Assembly (NCBI GenBank): GCA_963773065.1
Contig: CAVYZN010000009.1
Location: forward strand, 96,001 to 160,000
Direction of reading: 5' to 3'
DNA: 64,000 nucleotides
DNA from: an uncultured Gammaproteobacteria bacterium
GTDB taxonomy: Bacteria; Pseudomonadota; Gammaproteobacteria; UBA9214
Shown piece after piece: positions 373 through 22,419 of the stretch (within the stretch, counting starts at the first letter, position 1; every line of letters starts with the position of its first letter). The notes beneath the pieces were generated by a model. It was given only the letters and a program-made list of their open reading frames with translations, did not search any database and was not told where the DNA came from. The position numbers and the translations under genes are program-made.

Positions 373-511
373 GTATAAGCTACTGACGTACAGCATTAAA
401 CGACATTTTCAGCAATCACGTCGTCAAAAAGTGACGATTACCTACGGTCATCTATCATTGCCACATGCGCGTTTCTAATTTAACCTGTTGTGTTTAACGG
501 TAAAGATATAA

Positions 512-528
512 TGGCACATTAATTTGCT
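512..528 (+). promoter_or_regulatory. sigma54-like -24/-12 promoter with spacer one base too long
   Basis: TGGCACATTAATTTGCT resembles the sites at 17707 and 21449, but GG-GC spacing is 11 rather than 10; the TTT run could be an indel error. Confidence 0.4.
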
Positions 529-859: not shown

Positions 860-1895
860 TTGCGTGATATCTTACTAAGGATGTCACTGGCAATATTCGC
901 ATTGTTGTTTTTCTCTACTGTTGCGGATGCCAGGCCCGCTCAATATGTACGCCCATATGGTCCCGATGCGCCCTGGAACGTCCTGGTCAAGAACCTGCCG
1001 AGGCACCCACAATCGGCAACTTATGCATCACGCCTATGGTCTGGTGTCGGTGGACAATTTCGATCAGCCGTTCAATGATTACACCTATCCCGTCTATTAC
1101 GCTGATGCGACAGGTAACTACACGGTGAATGGTGGTAATGGCACCATCAATGGTAAGCAGATGCCATGGAATCCGAACATGGTCGGCGGCTGGTGGTTCC
1201 GATGCACAAGTCATCGTGCTGGATCCGGCTACCGGGCGGGAGTGGAACTTGTGGCAGGTCAGTGTTTCGCGGAGCACGATCAATGTTCACAAATGGCAGC
1301 CTTGTTGGCCAGCGGAGACACCGTCCAGTAACAGGCACCGGAAACTACCGCACGAAAGAAAATGGCTGGGCGGGATGCTCGCGGGGTCGGCATTCAGTAT
1401 CTAGCCATGCTGGTGCGACCCGAGGAAATCACGCAGGGTGAAATCCAACATGCCCTGTCGATGCCGATCAGCAATCCAAGCAAGGAGCACTTACGTCGCC
1501 CCGGCCACCAAGCTGGAGCATCTGGCACGGATTCAGGCAATGAAGTCCCGGAAGGCATGCGGTTCGCCATGGATATGACCGATGCTCAAATAAATCCTGG
1601 GTTGCTACCAAACCTGCGGCCTACCAGAAAACTGGCGCGTACCGTCGGCCGTGCACTGCGCGATTACGGTTGGTTTATTACAGATACTTCGGGAGCGGAT
1701 AGTTTCAGTTTGAATCTCAGGCATCGGCCGATGCATTGTGGAAGGCGCAGGGGATCGACCCGGCATCGTCTACAGCGCGAACTGCTGGATGGCCTGATAA
1801 CCCAGAGTCGCATTTATACCATCGTGCCAAGCGATCAGTATCCGAACCAGTCGCTCGCGCCACCCAATCCCCCAACTGGACTTATCGTTAATTAA
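860..1895 (+). CDS. Secreted hypothetical protein with several frameshifts, ending in C-terminal APPNPPTGLIVN tail
   Basis: Signal peptide MSLAIFALLFFSTVADA; continuous protein-like sequence across ORFs 860, 921, 1129, 1166 and 1362 (DYTYPVYYA, DAQVIVLDPATGREWNLWQ, LVRPEEITQGEIQHAL, ALRDYGWFITDTSG). Confidence 0.7.
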
Positions 1896-2240
1896 AGGCG
1901 ATTGACAATTCTATTTGTAAGTGCTGCCGTGGTTGGTCGGCCAGAGGGCGCAGTAGGTGGCGCCCCCGCGCCGAAGAGAGACGGGATGGGATCTGAGCAC
2001 CTGTAGAGGCAGGCTGCGGCTGTGCCGCGGGATGAACTCGTCACCGGATTGTCAGCATCCCGAGTCTATTCCATCCCAAGTATTGCTGGTCCAAGTGCTG
2101 GATCAGGCCAGTCTGCAAACCTGCATTGCACTAATGCGCGTCAGAACAGAGGCGTGTTGGCCTGCGACATCCCGTAGAAAGGCATTCGCGTTAATAGCCG
2201 TTTACGTTCCAAACAGAATGCAACACTACAGTAGTGTTAG

Positions 2241-3373
2241 TTAGTTGTCGTCGAGATAGGCCGATATCATTATCTTTACGGCCTCTTGTGTGCTGAATCG
2301 TGCATGGACAAACGCCTGCGCCTGCTGTCCCATGTTAGCTGCCTCGACGGGATCGGCGATTAGACGGCGACAAGCACGCAGCAACTGTTCCAAATCGCCG
2401 GGTGGGTAGAGAATCGAGATATCCTCGCAGAATTTCCTGAAATCACTAACGATGTCTGTGGACACCACCGGTATTCCGGAGGCCAGCCCCTCAAGCACGG
2501 ACAAACCGAACCCTTCACTGACCCCTCTAGAGGTGAATAGAAATATGTCTGCTGCCATTAGTAGTAGGCGGACATCTTCGCAAATTCCCAGCATCCTGAA
2601 GCTGCCTTCTCCTAAATTGAGTTCCTTGGCCCGTGCTAGCATCCGCTCTTTCAAGGGCCCGTCACCCGCAACCAGCACCATAACGTTTCCTGGATTCTCG
2701 TTCAACGCAGCCGACAGATCGGGAAGTATCTCCGTTCCTTTGAATTTCCGTAAATGAGATGTACTCACCAATACACGTTTGGACGGAGGAATCCCGAGTC
2801 TCTCCCGCGCTTCCCGCCGTTGTCCTTCACTAAACCGATACCTCTCCGGCTCAACGCCCCTTTCATGTGTGCATATTTTACTCTCACCATGCGAACTCGA
2901 TATCAAACGGTTCTCAATCATATCAAACTGAGAACAATTTTCCGAGTCAAACGCTGCTAACGGTACTGCCAAGTGCGCAGCCAATACCTCGCATCGACGG
3001 AGTGTTATGTCGTGTCGGGAATCTCGCTTGACCTGCGATAACCTCGCGGCCACGAGCCCAGTATTGAGCGTCCGTGCATGGTGCACATGGAGATGGGTTG
3101 CCCCGACTTCTTTAAGAAGCGTTGTAACGCGGCGGACGAAGCCGGCGTCAAATGCATGTCGTACTGGTGAAGCACAACATGAAACTGGGCAGAAGAGTCT
3201 CGAATAAATTCAGTTGAAAGTGACTGATTCTGGAAAATGAAATGGCTGTCGGCGCCACGATCGCTCAAAGCGTGTGACAGTTGAACAAGATAGCGTTCGA
3301 AGCTGCCATATTGCCGGTTGGGCCATCCCATGAGTTGAACAATCGAAGGTTGTTTCTTAAGGTCTTCGTTCAT
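2241..3373 (-). CDS. Glycosyltransferase family 4 (GT-B), frameshifted
   Basis: N-terminal YGSFERYLVQL in ORF 3005-3409; C-terminal KG..AGDGPL, ADIFLFTS..EGFGLSVLEGLASGIPVVST motif in ORF 2241-3086. Confidence 0.85.
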
Positions 3374-3492
3374 ACCGCCTCTCCTGTAACTGGTGAAAGC
3401 ACTTAGCAATTGAATTCTCGCAGGGGCTTAAGTAAATGTTCACCTTTGCTCAAGCTGCATGCAGGTAACCGGTAACCCACCGGCGTTCTTGT

Positions 3493-5089
3493 CTACGCCG
3501 CGGGTGTGCAAGGGCGAGCGCAGCGGATTGGTGGCGAAGAGCTGCTTCCAGAGTCGCGGCGTGAGTTCGTGAACACGGTTGGCCGGATGCTGACCGACGC
3601 GCTGCAAAACGTCGACGAGGTAGTCGTAAGGATCGATCTGGTGCAGCCGGCAGGTCACGATCAGGCTCTGCATGATGCCGACGTGTTTGGCCCCGAGTTC
3701 GGTCCAGCAGAACAGCCAGTTTTTGCGCCCATGGGGATCGCCCGCAGCGCGCGTTCCAGATGGTTGGTATCGATCGGCACATCCGGATCGTTCAGGTAAA
3801 CCTCCAGCCCCAATCGTCGCTCGCGGGCATAGGCCAAGGCTTTGGTCAGCGGATTGCTCGGCAGCAGGCCCTGCGCCTCGAACTGCTGGTTGACCCAGGC
3901 GAAGAACTGCTCGACGATCGGCTTGGCGTGCAGCAAGCGATAGTCGAGCTTCCTGGCGGCCGCCGAGCTTTGAGCTGCGGATGCGCTCTTCCACCGCATA
4001 GAGGCCCGCCGATCAGCTCCAGCCCCCTTGCCGCCGCCTGCGGTTCGGCGCCTTGCGCCTCGAAGAGCATCCGCCGCGTATGCGCCCAGCATTGGGCGTG
4101 GGTGAGCCCGGTCTTCTGCGCGTATTGGGCGTAGGCGCTGTAGCCGTCCGAGAGCAGGACGGCGCCCTCGGCGTGCGTCAGGCCGAGGGCCTGCTCGACG
4201 TGTTCGGCCCGCCGACTATGCGAAGAACGGGAAGCACACTTCGTCGAGTTCGCCATAGACCGGCCAGAAGTAGGCCGCCTTCAGTTTGCCCGGCTCGCCG
4301 CGCCCGGCCTTGATCGGCGTCTCGTCCATCGCCTTGACGCGGGAGGCCCGGATCGAGTCGAACTGTGCCTCGTAGATCGGCTCGAGCAGCGCGATCCCCT
4401 GCTGCCCAATCTGGGTCAGCCACGGCCGGCTGACCGTGATGCCGCTATCGCCGAGGCGCTGGTGCTGGCGATAGAACGGCAGGTGATAGGCGAACTTGTC
4501 AATCAAGCAGCCCGGCGATGAAACTCACGTCGGCGCGGCTGCCGTCGATCACCCCGGCCGGCGCGCTCGGGCAGACGATGATCTGCGTCGCCTTGAGCTT
4601 GATCACCGGCCGCCGGTAATTGAGCACGACGTAGCTGCCCGGACGCTGGGCGAGCCGGTAGCTCTCCTTGTGGCCGATGACCTCGAAGTCTTCCGGCGCG
4701 AGCCCCTCGGCTTCCGGCGCGGCCAGATCGATGACTTCGACCGGCACCCGCGCTCTCGTCGAAGAAGGGCACGCTGTCATCGCCCGTGTCGGGCTGCTTC
4801 GCCGCCAGCTCGCCGCGTATGCGCGGCGACGGGACGCTCACCCGGGGCCGGCGCTGTGGCGCTCTGCTCCCGATGGATTGCTTCACCCAGGCTCAGCTGG
4901 CCATCGGCACCGTCGATGATCCGCCGCTCGCTCTTCTGGCCGAAGAGCTGGCGCTTGAACCAGTCGAGTTGATGCTTGAGGGTCTCGACTTCCTGGCTCA
5001 GCGAGGACATCAGATCGACGACCTGCTGCGGGCTCAAGGCGGCCGCTTCATCGAGGCTGAGACACGCGCGTCGCGGTCGTCGAATTCAT
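3493..5089 (-). CDS. tnpC: IS66 TnpC DDE transposase, several frameshifts
   Basis: LFGQKSER, DKFAYHLPFYRQ, MDETP, SDGYSAY, QCWAHTRR, IDTNHLERALR, GRKNWLF, DPYDYLVDVL motifs across ORF fragments. Confidence 0.9.
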
Positions 5090-5461
5090 GCAGCGATTAT
5101 ACCGAAGGCATCGCTGCCACGGGGGTGTCTGTAGCGCTTTCTGACGCACTTTCGCTTCGATGCCTTCGAGCAGCAGCTTCAGCCCCGTCCAGTCCATCTC
5201 CCGCGTCGTAACCTCACGCCAGTCGGACAGGAATCTTCCCTGCTTCGAGCCGCTTGCGCCCACAGGCAAAAACCGGTGCGGTCCCAGTAGAGCACCTTCA
5301 TCTGCGTCGCGCGGCGGTTGATGAACACGAACAGTCGGCCACTCGAGCGGATCCTGCCCCAGTTCCTGGCGCGTCAGGGCGTACAGCCCATCGTACGATT
5401 TCCGCATGTCGACGGGCCGACCATACACATGCACCCGCACCTGGCCTTCGGGGAAGAACAT
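5086..5461 (-). CDS. tnpB: IS66 accessory protein TnpB, frameshifted
   Basis: MFFP...PVDMRKSYDGL...LKLLLEGI. Confidence 0.85.
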
Positions 5462-5773
5462 CAGCTGCGCACCAGATGCAGAATCAGACCGTCGCCGAGA
5501 TCGAGCTTGAGATCGAGCCATGGCCTGGGTGACGATGCGGAATTCAGCGTGCCAAGATCGACGAACGCGGGCGTCGCTTGGTGGGGGATCGCCTCCATCT
5601 ACAGAGCGCCCGTCGCTCAGCAGGCTACGCCAGCGGTAGAAGCTCGCCGCACTGATCGCTTCGCGCCGGCAAAAGGCTTCGACGCCCATGCCGCTGCAGC
5701 TAAATCGCGCCAAGAGTGATCGCCACTCGCTCTGGCTGCGCCGTGACCACTTACCCTTCTTCCGCCCTGCCAT
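5461..5773 (-). CDS. tnpA: IS66 TnpA (HTH) protein, frameshifted
   Basis: WRSLLARFSCSGMGVEAFCRREAISAASFYRWR; stop overlaps the tnpB start. Confidence 0.8.
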
Positions 5774-5861
5774 CGCTTCCGCTCCCGTAGGTGATTCGTC
5801 TCGGAAGCCATTCTCGTCATCGCGTGCGCGAAGGGAAGAACGCCATGGGGTTACCGGTTAC

Positions 5862-6025
5862 GCTACAACAACAGCTACCCCTTTCGCTCCAGAACGGCAC
5901 CCCGGCACGCGAGCCCTATGCCAACATCCGAGATCCAGGTAAGAAATGCGGGCGAGCGCAGGGTGGCGGATCATTGGATATCGCGCGAGGGCATGCGCTC
6001 TTCTTGCGACACGTTTGCCCGTCAT
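5862..6025 (-). pseudogene. Probable 5' fragment of a SAM-dependent methyltransferase cut by IS66
   Basis: Reverse strand reads MTGKR...SYLDLGC, then GIG with a 1-nt shift, and ends at the IS boundary. Confidence 0.4.
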
Positions 6026-6087
6026 GCAGTACGCATCCAGACAACGAGGAGGTTAGCTGTTAGCCAAACTCTCTCAAGTTGCTTCCT

Positions 6088-6900
6088 TTAATGATTCACA
6101 ACTGAATGCGTGGCACGAAGTTTCTTCATCCAGATTACCGCGTAGTTGGCGTACGGTCGCAGGAAAGTGAATTTGTCGAGCAGTACGCGATCGGCTTGAT
6201 GTAATCGCGGGAATTGCCAGCGCCAACCGAGTATCCTTTCCAGCATGCCCAAGAGGTGCATCTCCTGCCAGTGGCACTCATCGAACAACAGACACCAAGC
6301 CTGAATGTCGTCGTAGGTTAATGGGTGATCAGTGCCCCGTGGGGACTTCCTAGAGTATGGCACGTGGTCACGTATGAAGCGTATCAGCGGATTGTTGGCC
6401 AATGGCTCGCTGAACACGGCGACACCACCGATCTTGAGGACCCGGTGCAATTCCATCGATGCCAGCTCTACGTCTAGATGATGGAGTATCGCGAGCCCGA
6501 AACCGATATCGAAAGTTTCATCTTCAAAGGGCAAATTCTCTGCGACTGCCACATGGAAATCGATATCATCTGCAACATTGTTGAGTTCTGCGCGTCTCCT
6601 GGCTATGTTTATGGTCCCCGGTGAAATATCGAAAGCCGAGACTGCTGCCCCACTCTTCGCAAGCAGTACCGATAACTCGCCAGTGCCGCAGCCCATCTCG
6701 ATTACTTTTTTTCCTTCTAGATTACCTAGGAGTTCACCGATTCCCAATAGGTAACTTTCCGTTTTGGTGTGCTCGATAAAATTGGCGTGAGGTGGAAGCA
6801 CAGCCGTATCATCAAGATGAATTTGGCTGGATTTAGCATCAAATTTAGTGCGTTCGATCTGGAACCGATCCTCAAGTTCCAATAGCTTTGGGTTTTTCAT
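6088..6900 (-). CDS. Class I SAM-dependent methyltransferase
   Basis: VIEMGCGTGE, AFDISP, AENLPFEDETFD, LHHLD, VLKIGG motifs; alternative start at 6951. Confidence 0.9.
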   Translation of the reverse strand: MKNPKLLELEDRFQIERTKFDAKSSQIHLDDTAVLPPHANFIEHTKTESYLLGIGELLGNLEGKKVIEMGCGTGELSVLLAKSGAAVSAFDISPGTINIARRRAELNNVADDIDFHVAVAENLPFEDETFDIGFGLAILHHLDVELASMELHRVLKIGGVAVFSEPLANNPLIRFIRDHVPYSRKSPRGTDHPLTYDDIQAWCLLFDECHWQEMHLLGMLERILGWRWQFPRLHQADRVLLDKFTFLRPYANYAVIWMKKLRATHSVVNH

Positions 6901-7215
6901 GGTAGTCGACCCATTAAGTTGACGAGAAGGAATTTTACCTGAGGCTCCCATATCATAATGTTATGAGGACTAATTTGTACCACAATTTTGCTGTTTAGTC
7001 ACTTACGTCCTAATGGCAGGATAAAAATCGCCCTTCGCCGCCAGGCCGGGCGCCGGGACGGCGATACCGTCGACTTCCACAACGGCTCCCTAGCTCTGGC
7101 AGAGCTCGCCGAACTTATCTCAAGCTGCAACTCCTGACGCGTCGCTCTGCCTGAACTCTGCGCCCCACCGTCAATCGCACTATCCGGCGCAATACTCAAC
7201 GTCTGTGCGTCGTAA

Positions 7216-7250
7216 GAAATGGACCCCGATTTTTGGACAGCCGTTTAAGT
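7216..7250. mobile_element. Possible isolated IS terminal-repeat remnant (IS3-like end)
   Basis: GAAATGGACCCCGATTTTTGGACAGCCGTTTAAG resembles IS3-family ends from memory; no partner end or transposase seen. Confidence 0.25.
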
Positions 7251-7450
7251 GTATTCTGCCCACACATCATGCGGCCTGATCATGCTGCAGCAGGCCATAC
7301 TGAACAGTCTTCGTACACCTGATCCGGCGTGTGCTTATCTAGGCTCTGATGTCTGCATTCACGGTTGTAGAACCGGAAATAGTTTCCAATATCCGGACGT
7401 GCCTCAGCAACCGAGTCGTATGCCTTCACATACACCTCTTCATATTTTCA

Positions 7451-8476
7451 TTATGGCAGCAGATGATGTACCCGCAGTATAAACGGCAGGATGGCTAGAC
7501 CCGCACCGATGCCATAGCGACACAGTTCCAGTGGCGGAGTTGACATGGTGCTCGGTCCATCACGAGTAGTAACGGCTGCCTCTATGCCAGAGCTTTCCAG
7601 GAACCTTATGACTGCTTCGTTATAGTCACCGGGCTGTCCGTTCGGGTAAGCGAACAGCCTGCATGGCTTGCCGGTAAGCCGTTTTGTGTCTTCTATGCTT
7701 GATGCAATCTCCTGGCTGGCGCGAGCCTCATCAACACGTGAAAGTATGGTATGAGTGGCCGTATGCGCTCCGAATTCGATCAGGTTGGATGCGGACATCT
7801 CCGCAATGGACTGATTGCCAAGCATACGGAAGTGCGAATCCCTGTCCACCTCTGTAGGAGTGTGTATATCCAATTCCTCACGGATTTCAGCCAGTTTTTC
7901 CAAAAGTTCCTGATGCGGAAGATGCTTCAGGAGGGACTGTAGTCTGGCACTGGCCCTTGCCTTCGAGACGGTATTTGACAGGTCATAAACCTGTCCGCTC
8001 CACGAAAGCTTCTGGTGGATCGTTTCGGAGATTGCCTGGTTCAGCGTGCAAAACCAGACGGTATTTGCCGTGTTTATAAAGGCGGTGTTTAGGAAAACAG
8101 TGGCGGGCAGGCCAAAACGGGACAGGATTGGATAGGCCACATCGTAAACATTCTGGTAGCCATCATCAAAGGTTATGACGGCTGTCGGTTCATTAATACG
8201 ATTCTCCCGCAGGTCCTTCGCAGCCTGGGTAAGCGAAACGACCTTGAGATTTCGGTGCAGATATTCCATCTGACGGGAAAAGTTTTGTTCCGAGATAAAG
8301 CACCAATCGGGTACCGCAAGGGGTATTCTCACCACGCCATGGTACATCAGTATGGCGAGTTTCTTCCTGAAGAAGGTACGATGGAGAAGTCGCGGCTGAT
8401 TTAATATCGCAGGACTGATAAGTATCAGTTCCTCGATTGCGCGCCTGATCTGGTTCGGCAAGTCATGCACCAGCAA
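7451..8476 (-). CDS. Polysaccharide deacetylase (NodB/CE4)
   Basis: ILMYHGV, ITFDDGY, PATVF, FGAHTATH, FAYPNG motifs. Confidence 0.92.
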   Translation of the reverse strand: MLVHDLPNQIRRAIEELILISPAILNQPRLLHRTFFRKKLAILMYHGVVRIPLAVPDWCFISEQNFSRQMEYLHRNLKVVSLTQAAKDLRENRINEPTAVITFDDGYQNVYDVAYPILSRFGLPATVFLNTAFINTANTVWFCTLNQAISETIHQKLSWSGQVYDLSNTVSKARASARLQSLLKHLPHQELLEKLAEIREELDIHTPTEVDRDSHFRMLGNQSIAEMSASNLIEFGAHTATHTILSRVDEARASQEIASSIEDTKRLTGKPCRLFAYPNGQPGDYNEAVIRFLESSGIEAAVTTRDGPSTMSTPPLELCRYGIGAGLAILPFILRVHHLLP

Positions 8477-8496
8477 TTAGGGTAATTCAGTCGTAG

Positions 8497-9660: not shown

Positions 9661-10296
9661 AAATCATTCCATCTCAATTTCGTAATGCGCCATTACGGCA
9701 GACCAAGTGTTATTGCAGTTTAATAATCACAGATAATCGTTTATGCAAATTGTAAATGCAACACTACTAACCGATATGAATGACAAGTTGCTGCAATTCC
9801 TGGCCTTCTGCTGCGGAGTGCAGGGGAAGCGGGAATATAAGTTTCATACACTGCTTATCCAATAACAGCGTTATCTCGATCGTCCTGACGAAAGCAGACG
9901 GTTGCACCTGGTTTCTGTAATCCAATCCCGTCGTGATCAGTTCCAACCTGGAAAGTGGTATTCAGGCGTACTGATCTCAAAATTGTCCGCCTATTCTTCG
10001 CGGGAGAATATTTGGACGCCATGCACAGGCAACATACATGATGTGTTTCCAGTGACGACCTGAATCTCAATATCAAGATTATGACTGGGTAAGCCGATAC
10101 CCGATTACCCGGGCTATTCAAGATCCATCGTTCTGTCTGAAAGCAGTATCTTCCGTGCCGGCTCTTAGCCTGTTGTTTGTGACGCATCACTCACTCCTAG
10201 TGTGACCCTTGTTATTCAGCCACTGCCGATCAGGCCGATGAATCTACACATTCAAATGCAGAGTTTTGGGTCACTAGTGTGTTGGAGAACAGATTT

Positions 10297-13157
10297 ATGA
10301 TGATTCGTCACTTAATTCAGTCCGGTTTTTCAAAAGTACTGTTATGCGTCATCTTTGCGGTTCAGTTGGTTGCCTGTGGCGGTGGCGGTGGGGGGGGCGG
10401 CAGTACCGGTAGTGGTGCTGCCGACATCGCCAGTGCCGTGGAGGTCAGCGGCAGCGTCGGCGATGGCCCGGTAACCGGCGCCACGATTGTGGTCTATGCA
10501 GACAATGGTGACGAACTTGGCACCATGAGCAGCGACAACACCGCTTCCTTTCAAACCACCGTTAGGGCAAAAGGGCGTGATTACCCGCTGCTCATCAAGG
10601 CCAGCGGCGGCTTTGACCTGGTAACGGGCGATGAACCGGCCTTCGAGATGTTATCGGTGATGATGGGTCCGTTCGGAGCAAGCAGGAGAATATCAATCCA
10701 TTCACGACCCTGATTGTGAAGACGGCGCAATCCCTGCCGGGTGGACTGAATGCGGATAACGTCAGGGCTGCCAAAGACATTGTCATCGACAAGCTGGGAT
10801 TTGGGCTGGACCCGAATCTGGTTCCTGATCCGATTACCACCGCTATCAACGAGTCGAAGGCGGCCAATATCATCAAGGCGAGCGAGGCGCTGGCGGAGAT
10901 GGTGCGTCGCACCCGCGATACGGTTTCCGCCGTTGGGGCGCGGCTTTCGGGTGATGATGTGATGGCGGCGATTGCTGCGGATATGACGGACGGTTTCCTG
11001 GACGGGAAGGGCGCGCGCGGCGCCGATGCGCGTGTGGCCGCCGTGGCCACAGTGGTGTCGTCTCAGGTGCTGGTGGAAGCGCTGGGCAATGCCCTGGAGG
11101 TGGGCGGGGTGGTTGCGACCGGCATGCTGGATGAGGCTATCACCACTACCCAGCCCGGTATTGGCTCATCCCAGCTGACGGACAGTGTGCGCATCAGCGC
11201 GGGCATGCTTGGGCAGACGAAGATTGCGTTGGCGGCCGTGCAAGTGCTGGATTCCAGTTCCCAGGTTGCCGACATCGCGACGAGCGTCAGCGGCATTGCG
11301 CCCAACAGCCTGCCGGCGGACATTGCCGGTGTGTTACCGGCCGATGCCTCGACCTACCTGGACAATGCGGTGGTGCTGTCCCCAACAGCGACGACCGAGC
11401 AAATTGCCGGCATCGGGCAGGCGGTACATGGCACAGGCGGTGGTATCACTCCAGCGCCGGGGAATAACAGTGCACCGGTGATCAGCGGCTCACCGGGTAC
11501 CGCGGTGGTGGCGGGTACGGCCTATGCTTTCCAGCCCAGTGCCAGTGATGCCGACGGGGATACGCTGAGCTTCAGCATCAGCAACAAGCCCGCCTGGGCG
11601 AGCTTCAGCGCCACGACCGGCCGTCTGAGCGGCACGCCCGGGACGGGCAGTGTCGGGAGTTACGGCAACATCGTGATTGCGGTGTCTGACGGGACGGCGA
11701 GCGCGAGCCTGCCGGCGTTCAGCATCCGGGTCGATGCGGCTACTCCTGCCAACAGTGCACCGGTGATCAGCGGCACACCGGGTACCGCGGTGGTGGCGGG
11801 TACGGCCTATGCTTTCCAGCCCAGCGCCAGTGATGCCGACGGGAATACGCTGAGCTTCAGCATCAGCAACAAGCCCGCCTGGGCGAGCTTCAGCGCCACG
11901 ACTGGCCGTCTGAGCGGCACGCCCGGGACGGGCAGCGTCGGGAGTTACGGCAACATCGTGATTGCGGTGTCTGACGGGACGGCGAGCGCGAGCCTGCCGG
12001 CGTTCAGCATCCGGGTCGATGCGGCTACTCCTGCCAACAGTGCACCGGTGATCAGCGGCACACCGGGTACCGCGGTGGTGGCGGGTACGGCCTATGCTTT
12101 CCAGCCCAGCGCCAGTGATGCCGACGGGAATACGTTGAGCTTCAGCATCAGCAACAAGCCCGCCTGGGCGAGCTTCAGCGCCACGACCGGCCGTCTGAGC
12201 GGCACGCCCGGGACGGGCAGTGTCGGGAGTTACGGCAACATCGTGATTGCGGTGTCTGACGGGACGGCGAGCGCGAGCCTGCCGGCGTTCAGCATCCGGG
12301 TCGATGCGGCTACTCCTGCCAACAGTGCACCGGTGATCAGCGGCACACCGGGTACCGCGGTGGTGGCGGGTACGGCCTATGCTTTCCAGCCCAGCGCCAG
12401 TGATGCCGACGGGAATACGCTGAGCTTCAGTATCAGCAACAAGCCCGCCTGGGCGAGCTTCAGCGCCACGACCGGCCGTCTGAGCGGCACGCCCGGGACG
12501 GGCAGTGTCGGGAGTTACGGCAACATCGTGATTGCGGTGTCTGACGGGACGGCGAGCGCGAGCCTGCCGGCGTTCAGCATCCGGGTCGATGCGGCTACTC
12601 CTGCCAACAGTGCACCGGTGATCAGCGGCACACCGGGTACCGCGGTGGTGGCGGGTACGGCCTATGCTTTCCAGCCCAGCGCCAGTGATGCCGACGGGAA
12701 TACGCTGAGCTTCAGCATCAGCAACAAGCCCGCCTGGGCGAGCTTCAGCGCCACGACCGGCCGTCTGAGCGGCACGCCCGGGACGGGCAGTGTCGGGAGT
12801 TACGGCAACATCGTGATTGCGGTGTCTGACGGGACGGCGAGCGCGAGCCTGCCGGCGTTCAGCATCCGGGTCGATGCGGCTCCAGTTCAGACCAGCAGTT
12901 TAACGTTACAATGGACTGCGCCCGTGGCCCGCAGCGATGGAACACCGCTGACCCTGGCGGATATCGACGGCTTCCGCATCCATTACGGGAATTCAGCCGG
13001 TAGCTATACCAATCATGTCACCGTGGCTGATGGTACCGCACAGAAAGTGACCCTGACCGATATCCCCGTAGGTACTTATTACCTGGTCATGACCACCTAC
13101 GATGTGGATGGTCGAGAAAGCAGTTACTCGTCGGTGGTGACCAAGACCATTCAATAG
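10297..13157 (+). CDS. Large surface lipoprotein (paralog A): lipobox, N-terminal domain, 5 putative Ig (He_PIG-like) repeats, C-terminal FN3-like domain; frameshift near 10680-10716
   Basis: VQLVAC-GGGGGGGG lipobox; GSVGDGPVTGA; NINPFTTL bridges the two ORFs; NSAPVISG..SDADG.TLSFSISNKPAWASF..TGRLSGTP repeats; SLTLQWTAP..GFRIHYG..YYLVMTTYD..ES. Confidence 0.85.
11466..12881 (+). repeat. Five near-identical 285-bp (95-aa) tandem repeats
   Basis: Unit starts AACAGTGCACCGGTG at 11466, 11751, 12036, 12321 and 12606. Confidence 0.97.
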
Positions 13158-13165
13158 TCCTTGCT

Positions 13166-13192
13166 TCCGGGCAGCCGCATAGGCTGCCCGGA
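13166..13192 (+). terminator. Stem-loop after paralog A
   Basis: TCCGGGCAGCC-gcata-GGCTGCCCGGA just after the stop codon; weak U-tract. Confidence 0.6.
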
Positions 13193-13836: not shown

Positions 13837-15282
13837 ATGATGCAAATGAATTTCTACCGTCCCAGGTCTATATTGCGATTGATCCTGACCGGATTCTCGC
13901 TGGTGGCCTTGCCGCTGGTAGCCGGATTGGTTATTGCTACTGTCTCGGTCGACCGTTTGGTCGGGCAGAGCCAGAATGCCCTGCTGCAGAGTGTGCTGGT
14001 AACCCAGGGCAGTCAAGTGCTGGTCGAGGCAATTACCGCCATGGAGCGCAATGCCCGTCAGTATCAGGTTCTCGGCGACAAGGTGTTGTTTAATGTCTAT
14101 GAGGAAAAGCACGCGAAATTTATAGATACCGCCCGCTCGCTCGTTGAGCTGGAGCTGGTAGAGGCCCAGCGCAAGCTTCTTGAGGAACTGCGTGCCAAGG
14201 AAGATGAAGTGCATACCGTTCTTAGTAATAATCCTCATGATGCCCGTGCAACCAAAGCCGCTTTAGCCAGGTTCACCGAACTTGCGCAAACGGCGCAACA
14301 GATCCTGGCTGATAATCAAGGACTGATAAACCGTGGAGTTGAACAAATACAGGGCAAAGCAGAGGAGGTTCAGCGAACGCTGGTATTACAGGCAATCGCC
14401 CTGGTCCCGGCTGCACTACTTCTGGGTATATTCTTTACAGTTCTGATCACTCGGCCTATCAACCAGGTCGATCAAGCGATCCGCCGGCTGGGTGATGGGA
14501 AATTCAATGATCCTGCTATCGTTACCGGACCGCGTGACCTTGAACAACTGGGCGAACGCCTTAACTGGCTACGCCAACGACTGCTTGACTTGGAGCAGGA
14601 AAAGGCTAAGTTTCTCCAGCACATATCGCACGAATTGAAAACGCCACTGACAGCAATCAGGGAAGGAGCGGAATTGATGAATGAACAGGTGGTGGGCGAT
14701 CTGAACACCCAGCAACGCGAAATAGCGGGGATCCTGCGAGACAATAGTCTGCAACTGCAGAAATTGATCGAAGATTTACTGAATTTCAGCATTATGCGTA
14801 CCCGCCCATCGAGTCTTTTCCGCAAGCGGCTGGAGCTGGGGAAAATTATTGTAAACGTGCTCGATGACCACAAGGTCGCCCTACTTTCGCGCAAACTGGA
14901 TCTGCGGACATCCCTGCAGTCAGTCAGGCTGCGAGGTGACAAGGAGAAATTACGTATAATGGTAGATAATCTTGTTTCCAATGCCATCAAGTATTCCCCT
15001 GATGGCAGCCCCTTGTGGGTTTTGTTATTCAAGCGTGATACCCATGCGGTCATCGAAGTGGCTGACGCCGGCCCAGGTATTCCTGTTGCAGATCGTGAAC
15101 GTGTCTTTGAAGCTTTTTATCAAGGAGTACCGGCCGACAAGGGACATGTCAGGGGCACCGGGCTTGGATTGTCTATTGCCAAGGAATACGCTCAAGCGCA
15201 TGGGGGGGATATTACTGTGTTGAGTACCGGGAAGATGGGTGCACGACTTCAGGTTGTTTTGCCGTTGGAACAAAGTTCCTGA
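13837..15282 (+). CDS. glrK: GlrK/QseE-type sensor histidine kinase
   Basis: RPRSILRLILTGF N-terminus, MERNARQY, HAMP, SHELKTPL H-box, NAIKYS, DAGPG, GTGLGL; followed by qseG-like and glrR. Confidence 0.88.
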   Translation: MMQMNFYRPRSILRLILTGFSLVALPLVAGLVIATVSVDRLVGQSQNALLQSVLVTQGSQVLVEAITAMERNARQYQVLGDKVLFNVYEEKHAKFIDTARSLVELELVEAQRKLLEELRAKEDEVHTVLSNNPHDARATKAALARFTELAQTAQQILADNQGLINRGVEQIQGKAEEVQRTLVLQAIALVPAALLLGIFFTVLITRPINQVDQAIRRLGDGKFNDPAIVTGPRDLEQLGERLNWLRQRLLDLEQEKAKFLQHISHELKTPLTAIREGAELMNEQVVGDLNTQQREIAGILRDNSLQLQKLIEDLLNFSIMRTRPSSLFRKRLELGKIIVNVLDDHKVALLSRKLDLRTSLQSVRLRGDKEKLRIMVDNLVSNAIKYSPDGSPLWVLLFKRDTHAVIEVADAGPGIPVADRERVFEAFYQGVPADKGHVRGTGLGLSIAKEYAQAHGGDITVLSTGKMGARLQVVLPLEQSS

Positions 15283-15284
15283 TT

Positions 15285-15821
15285 ATGAAGAGATTTATAA
15301 TTCTTCTTGTGATACTTGCAGCTATGTCGACTGCTTGCAGCGAATTGCAATCCTATCGATTTCCCAGGCCCGAGACCGTTATCACAGGCGTGCATGATGT
15401 TGACTATCTATTGATGGAATTGCATGGCACACGCGCCATGAATAAGAGTCAACTGCAACAGACGCTGGAAGCCTGGGAACAGGAATTTCAAGCTGACTCC
15501 AGCCCTGATAATCGGTTGAAATTAGCGCTGCTGTATGCAGCCGGCAAAGAGCCGGTCAGGGACCCTGGACGTGCCCAGGAATTGCTGAATGAGGACGCCA
15601 AAACGCCATCCAATCCCGCGGCACGAGAGTTAGCGGCGTTAGTGCGGGAGTTTCTTGAGGAACAGGTTGAGGTTAACAGGAAGGTCAATGATCTGAACAA
15701 GCAGATAGCCGAGCAGGGCAGGCGCATAGCCGAGCTGGAAGAGCAGCAGCGGGCGTTGATGAGCATTGAGCAGAAGATGCAGCAGCGTGAAGCCCCGGTA
15801 GTGATTGAAAATGACAAATGA
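15285..15821 (+). CDS. QseG/YfhG-like lipoprotein
   Basis: Lipobox-like MSTAC, coiled coil ending ALMSIEQKM, position between glrK and glrR. Confidence 0.7.
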   Translation: MKRFIILLVILAAMSTACSELQSYRFPRPETVITGVHDVDYLLMELHGTRAMNKSQLQQTLEAWEQEFQADSSPDNRLKLALLYAAGKEPVRDPGRAQELLNEDAKTPSNPAARELAALVREFLEEQVEVNRKVNDLNKQIAEQGRRIAELEEQQRALMSIEQKMQQREAPVVIENDK

Positions 15822-17175
15822 CAAGTATCGAGTGCTACTGGTGGATGATGATCCTGGCCTGTTGCGGCTGTTGTCGATGCGTCTTGCGGCGGCCGGTTAT
15901 GCGGTGACGGCGGTGGAGAGCGGGGAGCGGGCGCTGGCCCAGATACCGCTGCTGCAACCGCACCTTATCATTACTGACCTGCAGATGAACGGCATGGATG
16001 GGATGACGCTGTTCAACCAGGTACACAGCCGCAACCCGTCGCTGCCGGTGCTGATTCTGACCGCGCACGGGACCATACCGGATGCGGTTGCGGCGACGAG
16101 TCGCGGGGTATTCGGGTATCTGACCAAGCCCTTTGACAGCAAGGTGCTGCTGGGGCATGTGGCGCGGGCGCTGAAACTTAGCGGGGAGCTACCGGCGCGC
16201 CAGTCCGATGCCACGCTGGCGGAGTGGCGCAAGGAGCTGGTGACGCGCAGCCCGCTGATGGAGAATCTGCTGACGCAGGCGCGGCTGATTGCCGAGAGTG
16301 ACGCCAGTGTGCTGATACAGGGTCAGAGTGGTACCGGCAAGGAGCTGCTGGCGCGCGCGATCCACCGGGCGAGCGAGCGCGCGGCGGGTGCCTTTGTGGC
16401 GCTGAACTGCAGCGCCATACCGGAGTCGCTATTTGAATCGGAATTGTTTGGCCATGTGAAGGGGGCGTTCACCGGTGCGATGCGCGATCACCCGGGTCTG
16501 TTCCGTGCGGCGGCGGGGGGCACGCTGTTTCTGGACGAGATTGGGGACATGCCGCTGGGTTTTCAGGTGAAGCTGCTGCGGGCGCTGCAGGAGCGCAGCA
16601 TACGCCCGGTGGGATCGACCGAATCCGTGGCGATTGATGTGCGCATTATCTCGGCCACGCATCAGGATCTGGAGCTGGGGCTGCAGGAGAACCGCTTTCG
16701 GGAGGATCTGTACTACCGTTTGAATGTGGTGACGCTGGAGCTGCCCTCTCTGGTTGAGCGGCGCGAGGACATTCCGTTGCTGGCCAATCACTTTCTGCAG
16801 CATTTTCCGGATGCCGAGAAGAAGGGGGTGAAGGGGTTTTCGGCCGAGGCGATGGAGGCGATGCTGTCGGCGCCGTGGCCGGGGAATGTCCGGCAACTCT
16901 ACAATGTGGTGGAGCAGTCGGTGGCGCTGTCGACCACCTCGCTGATACCGGTGAGCCTGGTGCAGCGTGCCTTGCGGGGGGAATCGAGTGAAATACCGGC
17001 GTTTGCCGAGGCGCGCAGCGAATTCGAGCGGGATTACCTGACGCGGTTGCTGCAGATCACCCATGGCAACGTGACCCGGGCCGCCGGCATTGCCAAGCGT
17101 AACCGTACCGAATTCTACAAGCTGCTGCAGAAGCATCATCTGAATCCCGCGCAGTTCAAGTCGGCACCCTCCTGA
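15811..17175 (+). CDS. glrR: GlrR/QseF sigma54-dependent response regulator, copy 1
   Basis: Receiver [17 protein letters not shown]; GQSGTGKE; [15 protein letters not shown]; WPGNVRQL; [13 protein letters not shown]. Confidence 0.92.
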
Positions 17176-17261
17176 GGGGGGCCGCGATAGCCAGCCGGTG
17201 TGCACTGAACTGCGGTAATACGCTGAGTGACATTGGGGTGATTGTGTCTCGCGGCGTAAAG

Positions 17262-17480
17262 TGTCGCTGATTGCTGACAGTATTTGTCGGTTCGGCACTA
17301 ACTGGCTGACTTGGGGCGGCTTTAAGTGTTTCCATATAGAGACAGAGGCGATGAGGAACCGACGCCTTGTACAATTCAGCCCATCGTCAAGTCCGTTTTC
17401 CGCGCGTCCTGGAATTTACAGATATAGAAAAAACAAATAGATAGATTGTCTCCAGGGCGATCTGTCGGGCAATGATAACA
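17262..17480. promoter_or_regulatory. GlrR-type boxes: perfect at 17262-17279, one mismatch at 17327-17344 and 17463-17480
   Basis: TGTCgctgattgctGACA; TGTTtccatatagaGACA; TGTCgggcaatgatAACA. Confidence 0.65.
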
Positions 17481-17706
17481 GCGCCGAAACCCACGCCCAC
17501 GTGCTTTGGGCGTCCACTAGCTGACGGCGGGCAGATGGCTGCTTCAGCCTCCTGGTAAGAATGCCGGTCCCCTCGACAAATAACCTTTCTAATACACTCC
17601 TAACACACTGTAACAATAGGATAAATCTATTATCTGCGCAGTCCTGGCAGATCTCCAGATCGCCTCGATAGCCCTGCTACGCCAATTTTCATGTGACCAA
17701 AGCAAA

Positions 17707-17722
17707 TGGCACAGTAATTGCT
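17707..17722 (+). promoter_or_regulatory. sigma54 promoter for paralog B
   Basis: TGGCACAGTAATTGCT, canonical GG-N10-GC. Confidence 0.8.
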
Positions 17723-17951
17723 AATTTGCTAATACAACTTTTCAGCTTGAAAGCCTGCGAACGCCCCATCCGGGAAGTCCGTTTTCTTCCTTCTGAATGT
17801 GGTTGTTGAACTTTAACTGCAGGCCACGTGCCCAGAGCATCGAGATTGTTGCCACATGCAGTTACCTAGCCGGTGTGATTCACCAGCACTTGTAACGCGC
17901 CCTGACTGCACTTGGTTGCCAAACGAAATGGATCTACCGAGGAACTTATTT

Positions 17952-19200
17952 ATGAATGACACCTTAGTCAATTGCAGGATGACCGCTCAGAATTTGCAAA
18001 CTGGACTTGTCAAAGTGCTACTTATGGTCATTCTTGCGATAGCAAGCCTGCCGGCGTTTAGCGCCTCCAACCGCGCGCCGGTGATCAGTGGTACGCCGGC
18101 AGTCTCGGTGGCAGCAGGGAGTGTCTATACCTTCCAGCCCAAAGCGACTGACGCCGACGGGGATACGCTGAGCTTCAGCATCAGCAACAAGCCCGGCTGG
18201 GCGAGCTTCAACCCTGCGACCGGTCGTATGAGCGGCACGCCCGGGACTGGGAGTGTCGGGAGCTACGGTAACATCGTGATTGCGGTCAGCGACCGCAGGA
18301 CGACGGCGCGCCTGCCGGCATTCAGCATTCGGGTCTTGGCCGCCAACCGCGCCCCGGTGATCAGCGGCACGCCGGCCACTTCGGTGGTGGTCGGCAAAGG
18401 CTATAGCTTCCAGCCGAGCGCCAGTGACGCCGACGGGAATACGCTGAGTTTCAGCATCGTCAACAAGCCCGGCTGGGCGAGCTTCAACCCCGCGACCGGG
18501 CGCTTGAGCGGGACGCCCGGGACAGGCAGCGTCGGGAGTTATGGCTACATCATGATTGGGGTGAATGACGGGAAGGTGGCCGTGTTTCTACCGGTGTTCA
18601 GCATCCGTGTCAATGCCGCCACAACTTCCGCCAATCGCCCGCCGGTGATCAGCGGTACGCCGGGCACCGCGGTGGTGGCGGGGAGTGCTTACAGTTTCCA
18701 ACCCAGCGCGACGGACGCCGACGGGAACACACTGAGTTTTAGCATCAGCAACAAGCCCGCCTGGGCGAGCTTCAGCACCACGACCGGCCGTCTGAGCGGC
18801 ACGCCCGGGACGGGGAATGTCGGTACCTATGGCAACATCGTGATTGCGGTGTCTGACGGAAAGGCGAGCGCGAGCCTGCCGGCGTTCAGCATCCGGGTCA
18901 ATACCGCCATAACTTCGGCCACGACTCGGTTCGGACCGGCAGTTTACTTTGAGCTGGACGGCACCCGTTAAGCGCTCTAACGGCACACCGCTGTCGCTGG
19001 CGGATATCGACGGCTTCCGCATCCACTACGGGAAATCGGCCGGTAGCTATACCAATCATATCAACGTGGCTGATGGTACCGCACAGAAAGTGACCCTGAC
19101 CGATATCCCCGTGGGTACTTATTACCTGGTCATGACCACCTACGATGTGGCTGGCCGTGAAAGCGGTAATTCGTCGATGGTTAGCAAGAACGTTCAATAA
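17952..19200 (+). CDS. Secreted Ig-repeat protein (paralog B): 3 He_PIG-like repeats plus FN3-like domain; frameshift near 18930
   Basis: Hydrophobic signal ending ASLPAFSA; three NRAPVISGTP-type repeats; ORF 18949-19200 is a close homolog of the paralog A C-terminus. Confidence 0.85.
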
Positions 19201-19215
19201 ACATTCCGGACTGCG

Positions 19216-19421
19216 CCGCGGCACGAGAGTTAGCGGCGTTAGTGCGGGAGTTTCTTGAGGAACAGGTTGAGGTTAACAGGGAGGTCAATGATCTGAACAA
19301 GCAGATAGCCGAGCAGGGCAGGCGCATAGCCGAGCTGGAAGAGCAGCAGCGGGCGTTGATGAGCATTGAGCAGAAGATGCAGCAGCGTGAAGCCCCGGTA
19401 GTGATTGAAAATGACAAATGA
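19216..19421 (+). pseudogene. 5'-truncated second copy of the qseG-like gene
   Basis: Copy of 15616-15821 with no start codon or signal peptide. Confidence 0.9.
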
Positions 19422-20775
19422 CAAGTATCGAGTGCTACTGGTGGATGATGATCCTGGCCTGTTGCGGCTGTTGTCGATGCGTCTTGCGGCGGCCGGTTAT
19501 GCGGTGACGGCGGTGGAGAGCGGGGAGCGGGCGCTGGCCCAGATACCGCTGCTGCAACCGCACCTTATCATTACTGACCTGCAGATGAACGGCATGGATG
19601 GGATGACGCTGTTCAACCAGGTACACAGCCGCAACCCGTCGCTGCCGGTGCTGATTCTGACCGCGCACGGGACCATACCGGATGCGGTTGCGGCGACGAG
19701 TCGCGGGGTATTCGGGTATCTGACCAAGCCCTTTGACAGCAAGGTGCTGCTGGGGCATGTGGCGCGGGCGCTGAAACTTAGCGGGGAGCTACCGGCGCGC
19801 CAGTCCGATGCCACGCTGGCGGAGTGGCGCAAGGAGCTGGTGACGCGCAGCCCGCTGATGGAGAATCTGCTGACGCAGGCGCGGCTGATTGCCGAGAGTG
19901 ACGCCAGTGTGCTGATACAGGGTCAGAGTGGTACCGGCAAGGAGCTGCTGGCGCGCGCGATCCACCGGGCGAGCGAGCGCGCGGCGGGTGCCTTTGTGGC
20001 GCTGAACTGCAGCGCCATACCGGAGTCGCTATTTGAATCGGAATTGTTTGGCCATGTGAAGGGGGCGTTCACCGGTGCGATGCGCGATCACCCGGGTCTG
20101 TTCCGTGCGGCGGCGGGGGGCACGCTGTTTCTGGACGAGATTGGGGACATGCCGCTGGGTTTTCAGGTGAAGCTGCTGCGGGCGCTGCAGGAGCGCAGCA
20201 TACGCCCGGTGGGATCGACCGAATCCGTGGCGATTGATGTGCGCATTATCTCGGCCACGCATCAGGATCTGGAGCTGGGGCTGCAGGAGAACCGCTTTCG
20301 GGAGGATCTGTACTACCGTTTGAATGTGGTGACGCTGGAGCTGCCCTCTCTGGTGGAGCGGCGCGAGGACATTCCGTTGCTGGCCAATCACTTTCTGCAG
20401 CATTTTCCGGATGCCGAGAAGAAGGGGGTGAAGGGGTTTTCGGCCGAGGCGATGGAGGCGATGCTGTCGGCGCCGTGGCCGGGGAATGTCCGGCAACTCT
20501 ACAATGTGGTGGAGCAGTCGGTGGCGCTGTCGACCACCTCGCTGATACCGGTGAGCCTGGTGCAGCGTGCCTTGCGGGGGGAATCGAGTGAAATACCGGC
20601 GTTTGCCGAGGCGCGCAGCGAGTTCGAGCGGGATTACCTGACGCGGTTGCTGCAGATCACCCATGGCAACGTGACCCGGGCCGCCGGCATTGCCAAGCGT
20701 AACCGTACCGAATTCTACAAGCTGCTGCAGAAGCATCATCTGAATCCCGCGCAGTTCAAGTCGGCACCCTCCTGA
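19411..20775 (+). CDS. glrR: GlrR/QseF response regulator, copy 2 (same protein sequence as copy 1)
   Basis: Translation identical to 15805-17175 in the ORF track. Confidence 0.92.
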
Positions 20776-21020
20776 GGGGGGCCGCGATGGCCAGCCGGTG
20801 TGCACTGAACTGCGGTAATACGCTGAGTAGCCTCCCGTTATCGCGAATAATGTCATTCTGAGCGGCATGTATTTGGTCACCGCAGGGATTGCTTAAAGAT
20901 TGATCAGATAGAGATTCCTCTCAAGGCTCGGCGTGCAGCCCGGGATAGGTCGTATTGATAATATTCTCAGTGGGTTCAACAATCCGTCGTTTGACTCTGC
21001 CTTGCGAATGAATTAAGAAA

Positions 21021-21238
21021 CGTCTCCGAATGGAGACGTATTTGCTTAATATATTACTAACTGGATGATGATAATGATTTGTAGTTGTATCAATATGACG
21101 ACAGCTGCTATGAACAAACGCCTTATCCCTCCGCATAGCTTCTCATCTACGCGCAGTACAGCCGTCCTCTCTGAAGATAAATACCATTGAATTTCTGCAA
21201 TAAATTTTCCTCTTTGTAAGTGTCGGGCAGTGGTGACA
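21021..21238. promoter_or_regulatory. GlrR-type boxes: perfect at 21221-21238, variants at 21021-21038 and 21086-21103
   Basis: TGTCgggcagtggtGACA; CGTCtccgaatggaGACG; TGTAtcaatatgacGACA. Confidence 0.65.
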
Positions 21239-21448
21239 GGTTCCAGCGACACCCTGCCGTTCGTTCTGCAAATATTGCCGATTCTGATTGATTTAATAGT
21301 TTTACCAGCTACCTGCAGGGATGGTTCCTTGCTTGAAGCGTTTATAACAAACTGTTATTACGGGAAAAATAGCCATTTATACAGATCTGGCATGTTCTCG
21401 GGTAGCTTCGGCAAGCGCTTACACGCCTTCATCAACAGCTAAATCACA

Positions 21449-21464
21449 TGGCACAGTATGTGCT
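21449..21464 (+). promoter_or_regulatory. sigma54 promoter for paralog C
   Basis: TGGCACAGTATGTGCT, GG-N10-GC, nearly identical to the 17707 site. Confidence 0.75.
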
Positions 21465-21686
21465 GATTTATTTATACAGCGTTTCTGTTCGAATTCCGCA
21501 AGCCACACGTTATGAAGATTCGACTTCTTAATTTGCGATGTGGCTATTGAGCGTAACCGCAGGGCGGATTTCTTGGGCCTAGGTTTTTCAGACGCTGCCA
21601 GAGTGTTCTGTATCAGCAGGACTTCTAAAGCATCCTGCTTATATAGATCCCCAATTAAAGCCGTCTTACCAGAGGTGTAGATTCTC

Positions 21687-22419
21687 ATGAGAAGCATTTT
21701 ACTCGACGAAAAATTGCTGCCCCGGTTTATTCGCACCGGTATTGTCAAAGCCTTGGTTACCGTCGCTCTTGCAGTCCAGTTAGTCGCCTGTGGCGGTGGT
21801 GGTGGCAGCGACACCGCATCTGGCGCCAGCACCCCCAATGTAACCTCGAACGGCTCTACTCCTGCAACCAGCAACGGCACCCCCAGCACCCCCAAGTAAC
21901 TTCGAACGGGTCTACTCCTGCAACCAGCAACGGCACCCCCAGCACCCCCAGCACCAGCCAGCACCCCCAGCACCCCCAGCACCCCCAGCACCCCCAGCAC
22001 CGCCAGCACCCCCAGCACCCCCAGCACCGCCAGCACCCCCAGCACCCACAGCACCCCCAGCACCCCCAGCACCCCCAGCACCCCCAGCACCCCAGCACCC
22101 CAGCACCCCCAGCACCCCCAACAGCAACAGCAGTGCATCATCCGCAACCGGCACTGGCAGCCTGAGTTTGAATTGGGTTGCTCCCACTACCCGTGCCGAT
22201 GGAGCCCCGCTGTCCCTGGCGGATATCGATGGTTTTCGTATCCATTACGGGATATCAAGTGGTAACTATACCAATCACGTCAATGTGGCTGACAGTACCG
22301 CACAGAAAGTGATCCTGAATAATCTTGCCGTGGGTACCTACTACATCGTCATGACGACATACGATATCAATGGGCTGGAAAGCAGCTACTCGGTGGTCGT
22401 TAAAAAGACGGTCTCCTGA
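21687..22419 (+). CDS. Lipoprotein (paralog C) with Thr-Pro-Ser stalk and C-terminal FN3-like domain; frameshifts within repeats
   Basis: VQLVAC-GGGGG lipobox; TPS repeats; GSLSLNWVAP..GFRIHYG..YYIVMTTYD..ESSYS. Confidence 0.8.
21934..22121 (+). repeat. About 20 copies of 9-bp ACCCCCAGC (Thr-Pro-Ser) VNTR, preceded by a short duplicated block (about 21828-21950)
   Basis: Directly visible; two units have CCCC instead of CCCCC. Confidence 0.92.

Follow-up and report, generated by a model that had tools for sequence, protein, structure and literature searches.

The locus and its genes

The window analysed here is a 64-kb stretch of DNA from an uncultured gammaproteobacterium (positions 96001-160000 of contig C9 in assembly G000, which amounts to 3.84 Mb in 33 contigs and is 90.9% complete). 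Near its start lies a gene for a secreted protein (860..1895, + strand), hereafter the cargo gene, whose product ends in a short peptide resembling strand A of fibronectin type III (FN3) domains. Further along, the products of three paralogous genes, A, B and C, end in an FN3-like domain from which strand A is missing. An initial annotation of this DNA had proposed that the peptide tail completes the FN3-like domain in trans, with stalked lipoproteins acting as catchers for the secreted cargo.

The cargo gene encodes a signal peptide and a domain of about 340 residues with no assigned family. Its product ends in SLAPPNPPTGLIVN-TAA (tail and stop codon at 1851..1895, + strand, with the stop at 1895), an orphan C-terminus resembling an FN3 strand A. 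The description of this protein as ending in a tail with no FN3 body held in all three plus-strand frames 3' of the stop; positions 860-1895 do not form a single open frame, and our reading of a three-frame translation against a metagenomic homologue gives about eight frame switches within 1 kb. Either the gene has decayed into a pseudogene, or the assembly is poor at this place. Frame errors are not general to the assembly, because frames of at least 200 residues span 78.6% of bases genome-wide. Soil contigs from one study covered only about 1800-2235 of the region, with zero coverage over the cargo frame changes. One of these contigs, at a depth of 2.4, differed in the tail codons at positions 1881, 1883, 1885 and 1888; its translation kept the stop and the G-hydrophobic-x-A-N-stop pattern, which is weak evidence at so low a depth. 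When such tails were counted in the rest of the genome, the motif was found at the end of a single one of the 15,563 stop-terminated frames of at least 100 residues, and that one was the cargo gene.

In paralog A (10279..13157, +), a lipobox and an N-terminal region precede five He_PIG repeats and the C-terminal FN3-like domain (12891..13157, +), which reads ...RVDAAPVQTSSLTLQWTAP...; one frame change lies near 10660-10716. Its He_PIG repeats are near-identical (Pfam E 1.1e-55); at the DNA level, positions 11466-12905 form five tandem 285-base units with 93-99% identity. Paralog B (17856..19200, +) starts with a plain signal peptide, which is followed by three He_PIG repeats and by an FN3-like domain at about 18934-19200, with one frame change near 18925-18950. 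In paralog C (21687..22419, +), a stalk of Ser/Thr/Pro repeats separates a lipobox from an FN3-like domain at 22156-22419, with at least one frame change in the repeats, so that each of A, B and C carries one or more. The C domain (...STPNSNSSASSATGTGSLSLNWVAP... / ...TGTGSLSLNWVAP...) follows Ser/Thr/Pro/Ala low-complexity sequence, in agreement with the initial annotation. The stalk itself is a run of 9-base repeats (CCCAGCACC-like, 21911-22163), in which irregular 8-base units shift the frame. A fourth copy, paralog D, is located on contig C17; it is intact, 415 residues long and has a plain signal peptide.

All three paralogs in the window end in an FN3-like domain that starts from strand B, as had been described, except that B reads QFTLSWTAP and not SFTLSWTAP. 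The lipobox (LVACGGG) is confined to A and C; B, which is not a lipoprotein, and D have plain signal peptides. Because the cargo gene is broken or misassembled and A, B and C carry frame changes, the pair is probably not working in the window.

The FN3-like domain is encoded without strand A

Strand A of a canonical FN3 domain has a proline start followed by an alternating pattern. The FN3-like domain of the A-D family is encoded without this strand. A homologue search using the last 101 residues of D as the query returned 139 proteins at E<=0.001 among 276 candidates. In every one of the 120 homologues listed, the FN3-like domain formed the C-terminus and opened at strand B (L-x-W-x-x-P), the residues just before it belonging to the last strand of an Ig repeat or to a Ser/Thr/Gly linker, and none of the 120 had a P-x-P-P-x-x-hydrophobic-x-hydrophobic motif within 40 residues before the domain.

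The AlphaFold2 model of the last He_PIG repeat and the FN3-like domain of D (predicted local distance difference test score, pLDDT, of 95.3; 30-row alignment) contained six strands in the FN3 part (residues 92-98, 118-124, 132-136, 143-150, 152-161, and 174-178). It departed from the seven-strand FN3 layout A-B-C-C'-E-F-G, the first strand being the conserved Trp strand. Residues 91-179 of the model aligned with solved FN3 domains with Z scores of 10.8-9.2 and a root-mean-square deviation of about 2.0-3.0 Å over 75-82 residues, and in single-domain FN3 targets of 93-102 residues the match spanned about 79-88 of the target's residue numbers. Such partial coverage of the targets is consistent with the first strand of the solved domains having no counterpart in the predicted structure of D.

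Profile comparisons were made for the paralogs and for FN3 proteins encoded at the neighbouring loci described below. In five of the six PA14-type and small FN3 neighbour proteins, the match to the Pfam fn3 profile started at about position 10-13, and in the protein from locus L050 at position 2. Against PF00041 (gathering cut-off 25 bits), A scored 22.6 and C 15.8 bits, and B gave no match; among the neighbours, five PA14-type lipoproteins scored 26.3-38.1, the small FN3 protein of L093 20.4, and L032 17.4 bits.

The tail recurs at the C-terminus of unrelated secreted proteins

The tail has the form P-x-P-P-x-x-hydrophobic-x-hydrophobic-x-COOH. Among 1.84 billion representative proteins, 413 relatives of the 177-residue last piece of the cargo protein were found at E<=0.001. 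Their shared core ends in ...LLDGL-x-T-x-x-RIY-x-x-VPSDQYP and is followed either by nothing or by varied modules, including CBM96, PKD, K319L-like PKD and cadherin-like domains. Three of the 150 cargo homologues listed end in the tail (LAPPNPP[ST]G[LI]x[VA]N-stop), namely the window protein, P0208 and P0241, the last two having about 37% identity to the window protein. P0241 is full-length, with 379 residues and a signal peptide, and in its AlphaFold2 model (pLDDT 84.1) the tail is free and unstructured, residues 374-379 having a pLDDT below 50. No Pfam family, dockerin included, was detected in the cargo pieces or in P0241, and Foldseek gave no match to the cargo domain at E<=0.001; the top six fold matches were all MltA-type (double-psi beta-barrel, DPBB) chains, at Z scores of 4.8-3.9 over 167-185 residues, which lie below the trustworthy level. 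A profile search of genome contigs for related cargo loci found no relatives, a metagenome scan found two such loci, both tail-less at their ends, and the cargo domain was present in none of 24 same-family relatives of G000.

Other carriers of the tail were sought with DNA patterns. A strict pattern, PP-x-PP-x-G-x-x-x-N-stop, required the final Asn; with the third codon also set to Asn, it matched 12 stretches in a collection of 185,579 species (one genome per species). One of these was real, a 379-residue secreted protein of an uncultured Marinobacter ending in AAPPNPPGGVGVN. No Pfam family was detected in this protein, and its similarity to PL14/heparin-lyase-I-like structures in the Atlas (PF21294 clusters, template modelling scores of 0.53-0.57, feature scores of 0.94-0.96) provides leads only. 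The tail ended 79 of the 103 homologues of this PL14-like family, in 70 cases with exactly six residues after P-x-[PAS]-P. Where precisely six residues followed P-x-[PA]-P (61 tails), I, L, V or F occupied position 3 in 60 tails and V or I position 5 in 59; the last residue of the tail was variable in this family. About 15 of the 103 homologues stop directly after the core. Three members of a tail-less branch (P0360, P0366, and P0371) have a putative ordinary FN3-like domain at the N-terminus instead. A class-level search of 400 genomes located the PL14-like gene in one further genome, G183, in which the copy (L100:463-2451) encodes 662 residues with two tandem PL14-like domains and no tail; this genome had no match to the strand-less FN3, a single case of an absence that is expected by chance.

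Three further secreted proteins bear the tail: a beta-helix protein ending in PPMPPTDLQIVQ, a protein from a 364-residue open frame ending in PPNPPARIDIQ, and a small protein whose open frame of 204 residues ends in PNPPSNMVVQ. The latter two were obtained with a relaxed DNA pattern, which gave 15 matches in 121 genomes versus 6 for a reversed-pattern control; nine of the 15 were at true stops, of which five were the PL14-like gene and two were judged spurious. Several tail matches were rejected in the course of the searches: those in L112 and L113, from the relaxed pattern, were judged spurious, as were those in L059 (an antisense-looking frame), L075 (judged by eye) and L096 (the last strand of an FN3 domain itself). 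Judged from these protein sequences, the tail is a C-terminal module that is both conserved and portable, being carried by at least five families of secreted proteins that are unrelated to one another. It is a selected feature and not a truncation.

Predicted complex between the tail and the FN3-like domain

A complex was predicted for the FN3-like domain of D (residues 83-179 of its own alignment) and the C-terminal 38 residues of the cargo protein. It scored 0.68 (0.69, 0.66, and 0.68 in individual runs), compared with 0.02 for the best of three controls, which included neither a scrambled tail nor a foreign strand A. Among solved complexes, 58 of 80 reach the score mark applied, against 2 of 110 among mismatched pairs, a rough calibration here given that our own alignment was used. 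The runs agreed in at least 96% of contacts, and the partner had a pLDDT of at least 55.

Only residues 165-177 of the partner contacted the FN3-like domain. Tail residues 171-176 ran antiparallel to FN3 residues 97-100, and the prolines faced residues 104-105 and 158-160. In the model, the tail occupies the canonical position of strand A, and the end of the chain coincides with the site of the A-B turn. The fixed length of the tail would be explained by this geometry.

Genes for tailed proteins adjacent to strand-less FN3 genes

In the Marinobacter genome that encodes the AAPPNPPGGVGVN protein, three lipoproteins end in a strand-less FN3, one of them consisting only of a lipobox, a linker and the FN3. 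We examined 12 PL14-like loci (L030 and L048-L058; about 140 kb in total) and found a gene for a lipoprotein ending in a strand-less FN3 within about 0.05-4 kb of the PL14-like gene in five of them. The FN3 lipoprotein gene was 147 bp upstream on the same strand in L048, 51 bp upstream in L055, divergent from the PL14-like gene in L051, and about 4 kb away with three genes between in L049 and L050. Four of the five carriers contain two PA14 domains each (two of the four also score TSP3 repeats) and one contains a Golvesin_C domain, and at least three gene arrangements were represented. In genomes G144 and G151, the neighbour of the PL14-like gene was the only FN3-family match in the genome. 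At about three copies per 4-Mb genome, roughly 0.1 FN3 genes would be expected by chance in 140 kb. Because the loci are related to one another, the five adjacent loci do not represent five independent events. The gene for the tailed beta-helix protein is likewise 4.3 kb from a PA14-FN3 lipoprotein gene (L093). The same locus, with its two FN3 proteins, also encodes a protein ending in VPEPGTLVLLGIGLAGLGVARRRQRA (L093:17668-18288, - strand), an end that is presumably of the PEP-CTERM type.

Shared boxes and promoters in the window

Three exact TGTC-N10-GACA sites are present in the whole window, upstream of the cargo gene (355..372, +), of B (17262..17279, +) and of C (21221..21238, +). These palindromes are putative GlrR-type boxes, and the statement that the cargo gene, B and C have them in common was borne out. 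The accompanying statement about sigma-54 promoters was upheld for two of the three genes: B has a -24/-12 element, TGGCACAGTAATTGCT (17707..17722, +), with no mismatch to TGGCAC-N5-TTGC, and C a similar element, TGGCACAGTATGTGCT (21449..21464, +), with one mismatch, whereas the sigma-54-like TGGCAC-N6-TTGC of the cargo gene (511..527, +) is mis-spaced, its spacer being one base over the consensus. The element at 511-527 was read from the sequence and was absent from the matches of a sigma-54 scan that allowed up to two mismatches. The exact boxes at 17262 and 21221 stand upstream of the -24/-12 sites at 17707 and 21449, respectively. The apparent co-regulation of these three genes through GlrR-type boxes and sigma-54 promoters is in keeping with a function that they once had in common.

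The interval 13837..17175 (+) encodes a histidine kinase, a 178-residue protein and a response regulator of the sigma-54-dependent type. The GlrR model matched this regulator best, at 627 bits, which is below the curated cut-off of 763, with NtrC next at 415. A second copy of the GlrR-type regulator is present at 19405..20775 (+) within a direct duplication of 1.6 kb (15616-17228 and 19216-20828), which holds the whole regulator gene and whose copies differ at 4 positions.

Other features of the window

The neighbours of the cargo gene include a truncated GT4 glycosyltransferase, IS66 remnants, a methyltransferase, a polysaccharide deacetylase and a GT2 glycosyltransferase. The GT4 gene (2241-3086) is without its N-terminal part and lies beside the IS66-family remnants, which occupy 3000-5800 (matches to the IS66 C-terminal element and to TnpB_IS66) in a region of 57-68% G+C with many short overlapping frames. 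As a by-product of the sigma-54 scan, a 16-mer, TGGCGCGGTCATAGCT (TGGCCCGG... in one copy), was found to repeat every 102 bases or a multiple thereof at 48665-49190 and 51295-51412, which suggests a tandem-repeat gene or element.

Discussion

We consider it plausible, with a chance approaching even, that the tail is a natural tag and the strand-less FN3 its catcher, brought together by donation of a strand. The tail would then be a portable C-terminal tag on secreted enzymes, mostly of glycan-cleaving type, and would act as the missing strand A of the FN3 in which outer-membrane lipoproteins and secreted multi-Ig proteins end and which has strand B first throughout the family. The tag would lie antiparallel along strand B with its prolines against the BC and FG loops, and the chain would stop at the A-B turn. 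In or near exopolysaccharide loci, an enzyme held in this manner would have a non-covalent tether to a stalked carrier that binds sugars. That this amounts to a natural non-covalent tag-and-catcher system of Gram-negative bacteria, with a ten-residue tag on at least five unrelated families of secreted enzymes and a lipoprotein FN3 as the receptor, is a tentative proposal to which we give a little under an even chance.

This reading is better supported than when it was first put forward. The missing strand, the conserved tag, the adjacency of the two genes in other genomes and the common boxes are established; that the tail binds the FN3, and what such binding would serve, we infer. The conserved tail, the adjacency and the complex model speak for completion in trans as originally proposed, whereas binding is only predicted and the FN3 is far commoner than the tail.

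Several observations weigh against strand donation. The tagged gene in the window is broken, B is not a lipoprotein, and AlphaFold2 folds the six-strand domain confidently by itself. The complex prediction may owe its outcome, at least in part, to the model's familiarity with the canonical fold of FN3, which is among the best known. Many solved structures look like an FN3 with a strand-A-like peptide laid along it, and therefore the passing score points to likeness, not to binding. The adjacency may be due to a shared polysaccharide pathway alone, and no FN3 gene was found in the fetched stretch at 7 of the 12 PL14-like loci. Among 121 Marinobacter-family genomes, 109 encode the FN3 family and only 13 the PL14-like gene, so the presence of the FN3 family in all 13 of the latter is uninformative against this background, and the co-occurrence check suggested in the initial annotation failed to discriminate. 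The FN3 family was found in 12 of the 24 same-family relatives of G000, all of them without the cargo domain. No real tail was found in 20 FN3 neighbourhoods of nine G000 relatives (353,711 bases and 1,285 frames; two regular-expression matches were both judged spurious), and 20 neighbourhoods of FN3 proteins of 620-690 residues in the Marinobacter family contained one, that of the beta-helix protein. The strict tail pattern was absent from the 40 relatives of G000 searched, a blank that applies to the strict form only, since the final residue differed between tails in the family survey. No fusion of the enzyme with a complete FN3 was found: homologues of 665-2000 residues were lacking for the Marinobacter protein, and the FN3-subfamily motif was found in none of the 253 cargo or PL14-like homologues. 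On these grounds, the domain must as a rule work without the tails or with unrecognised donors.

The main rival, which we regard as possible but doubtful, is that the six-strand FN3 is self-sufficient, as a carrier, adhesin or matrix-binding domain, and that the tail is a real C-terminal tag read by something else, for example an unknown sorting, export or retention factor. On this view, the tail would resemble strand A and lie near FN3 genes because of a common polysaccharide locus, without contact between the two. The high-confidence monomer model without strand A fits this explanation, as do the many genomes and neighbourhoods that have the FN3 family without tails and the seven PL14-like loci with no FN3 gene in the fetched stretch. 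It accounts less readily for the proline start and strand-A alternation of the tail, judged by the known consensus, or for the fixed six residues after P-x-P-P, which fit a chain forced to stop at the A-B turn; the complex model also beats its controls, and no other candidate receptor was seen. The abundance of the FN3 family relative to the tails would also suit a different partner for the open edge, either through an edge-to-edge dimer of the domains or through an outer-membrane protein, with the tails as occasional mimics. Small lipoproteins made of a lipobox, a linker and an FN3 (frames of about 137-182 residues) recur in many Marinobacter-family genomes, which agrees with such an arrangement, but no candidate partner was identified and the tail-FN3 model already outperforms its controls; we consider this unlikely. 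The tail might finally be a functionless vestige, the first strand of an FN3 whose body was deleted. The many different C-terminal modules on the cargo homologues and the decay of the cargo gene in the window are compatible with this, yet the stop falls at the same place in proteins of about 37% identity, a tail of fixed length ends 79 of 103 members of the unrelated PL14-like family, and none of the 150 listed cargo homologues has this FN3 subfamily behind its core. The soil contig with four changes in the tail codons, which keeps the hydrophobic pattern and the stop, argues weakly in the same direction at its depth of 2.4, and we judge a vestige to be very improbable.

The proposed strand donation can be compared with several known systems. 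In chaperone-usher pili, an Ig-like sandwich is likewise made without one edge strand, which a second polypeptide supplies. What is lacking in that case is the C-terminal G strand, its place is taken by a strand of the chaperone or by the N-terminal extension of the next pilin, and a polymer results, whereas here the N-terminal A strand is missing, the donor would be the last ten residues of an enzyme, and the tether is proposed to be one-to-one. In cohesin-dockerin systems, a small, portable C-terminal module on unrelated glycan-active enzymes docks to a cell-anchored carrier. Strand donation by the tail would resemble such a system in miniature, displaying polysaccharide-processing enzymes at the cell surface, but dockerins, at about 70 residues, are folded domains that bind calcium, while the tag has about ten residues and would join the receptor's own fold. 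SpyTag and SpyCatcher share with the present case a short peptide that completes a split Ig-like domain; they are engineered and form a covalent isopeptide bond, whereas the pair proposed here would be natural and non-covalent. PDZ domains also accept the free C-terminus of a partner as a strand added to an existing sheet, but the PDZ fold is complete and gains an extra strand, while the tail would fill a canonical position of the FN3 fold.

Type V pili differ in that a protease first removes the N-terminal strand and the subunits then polymerise, whereas in the present case the gene lacks the strand and the donors would be unrelated enzymes. According to two reports (PMC4789730, PMC13655056), the type V (FimA/Mfa) pili of Bacteroidia are similar in having lipoprotein carriers and a C-terminal strand that fills the groove of another Ig-like domain. 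Our literature search, as far as the sources were accessible, turned up no description of an FN3 without strand A that is completed in trans.

If strand donation is false, there remains in the tail a conserved and portable module at the C-terminus of unrelated secreted proteins, its use unknown. If it is true, the pair would provide protein engineers with a natural peptide tag of very small size and a receptor of 85 residues for it, and the completion of a fold by a donated strand would be extended from pilus assembly to enzyme docking. It would also explain the retention at the cell of some secreted polysaccharide-active enzymes, as well as the widespread class of C-terminal 'FN3' domains, by giving a function to a common but unannotated C-terminal domain of proteobacterial lipoproteins.

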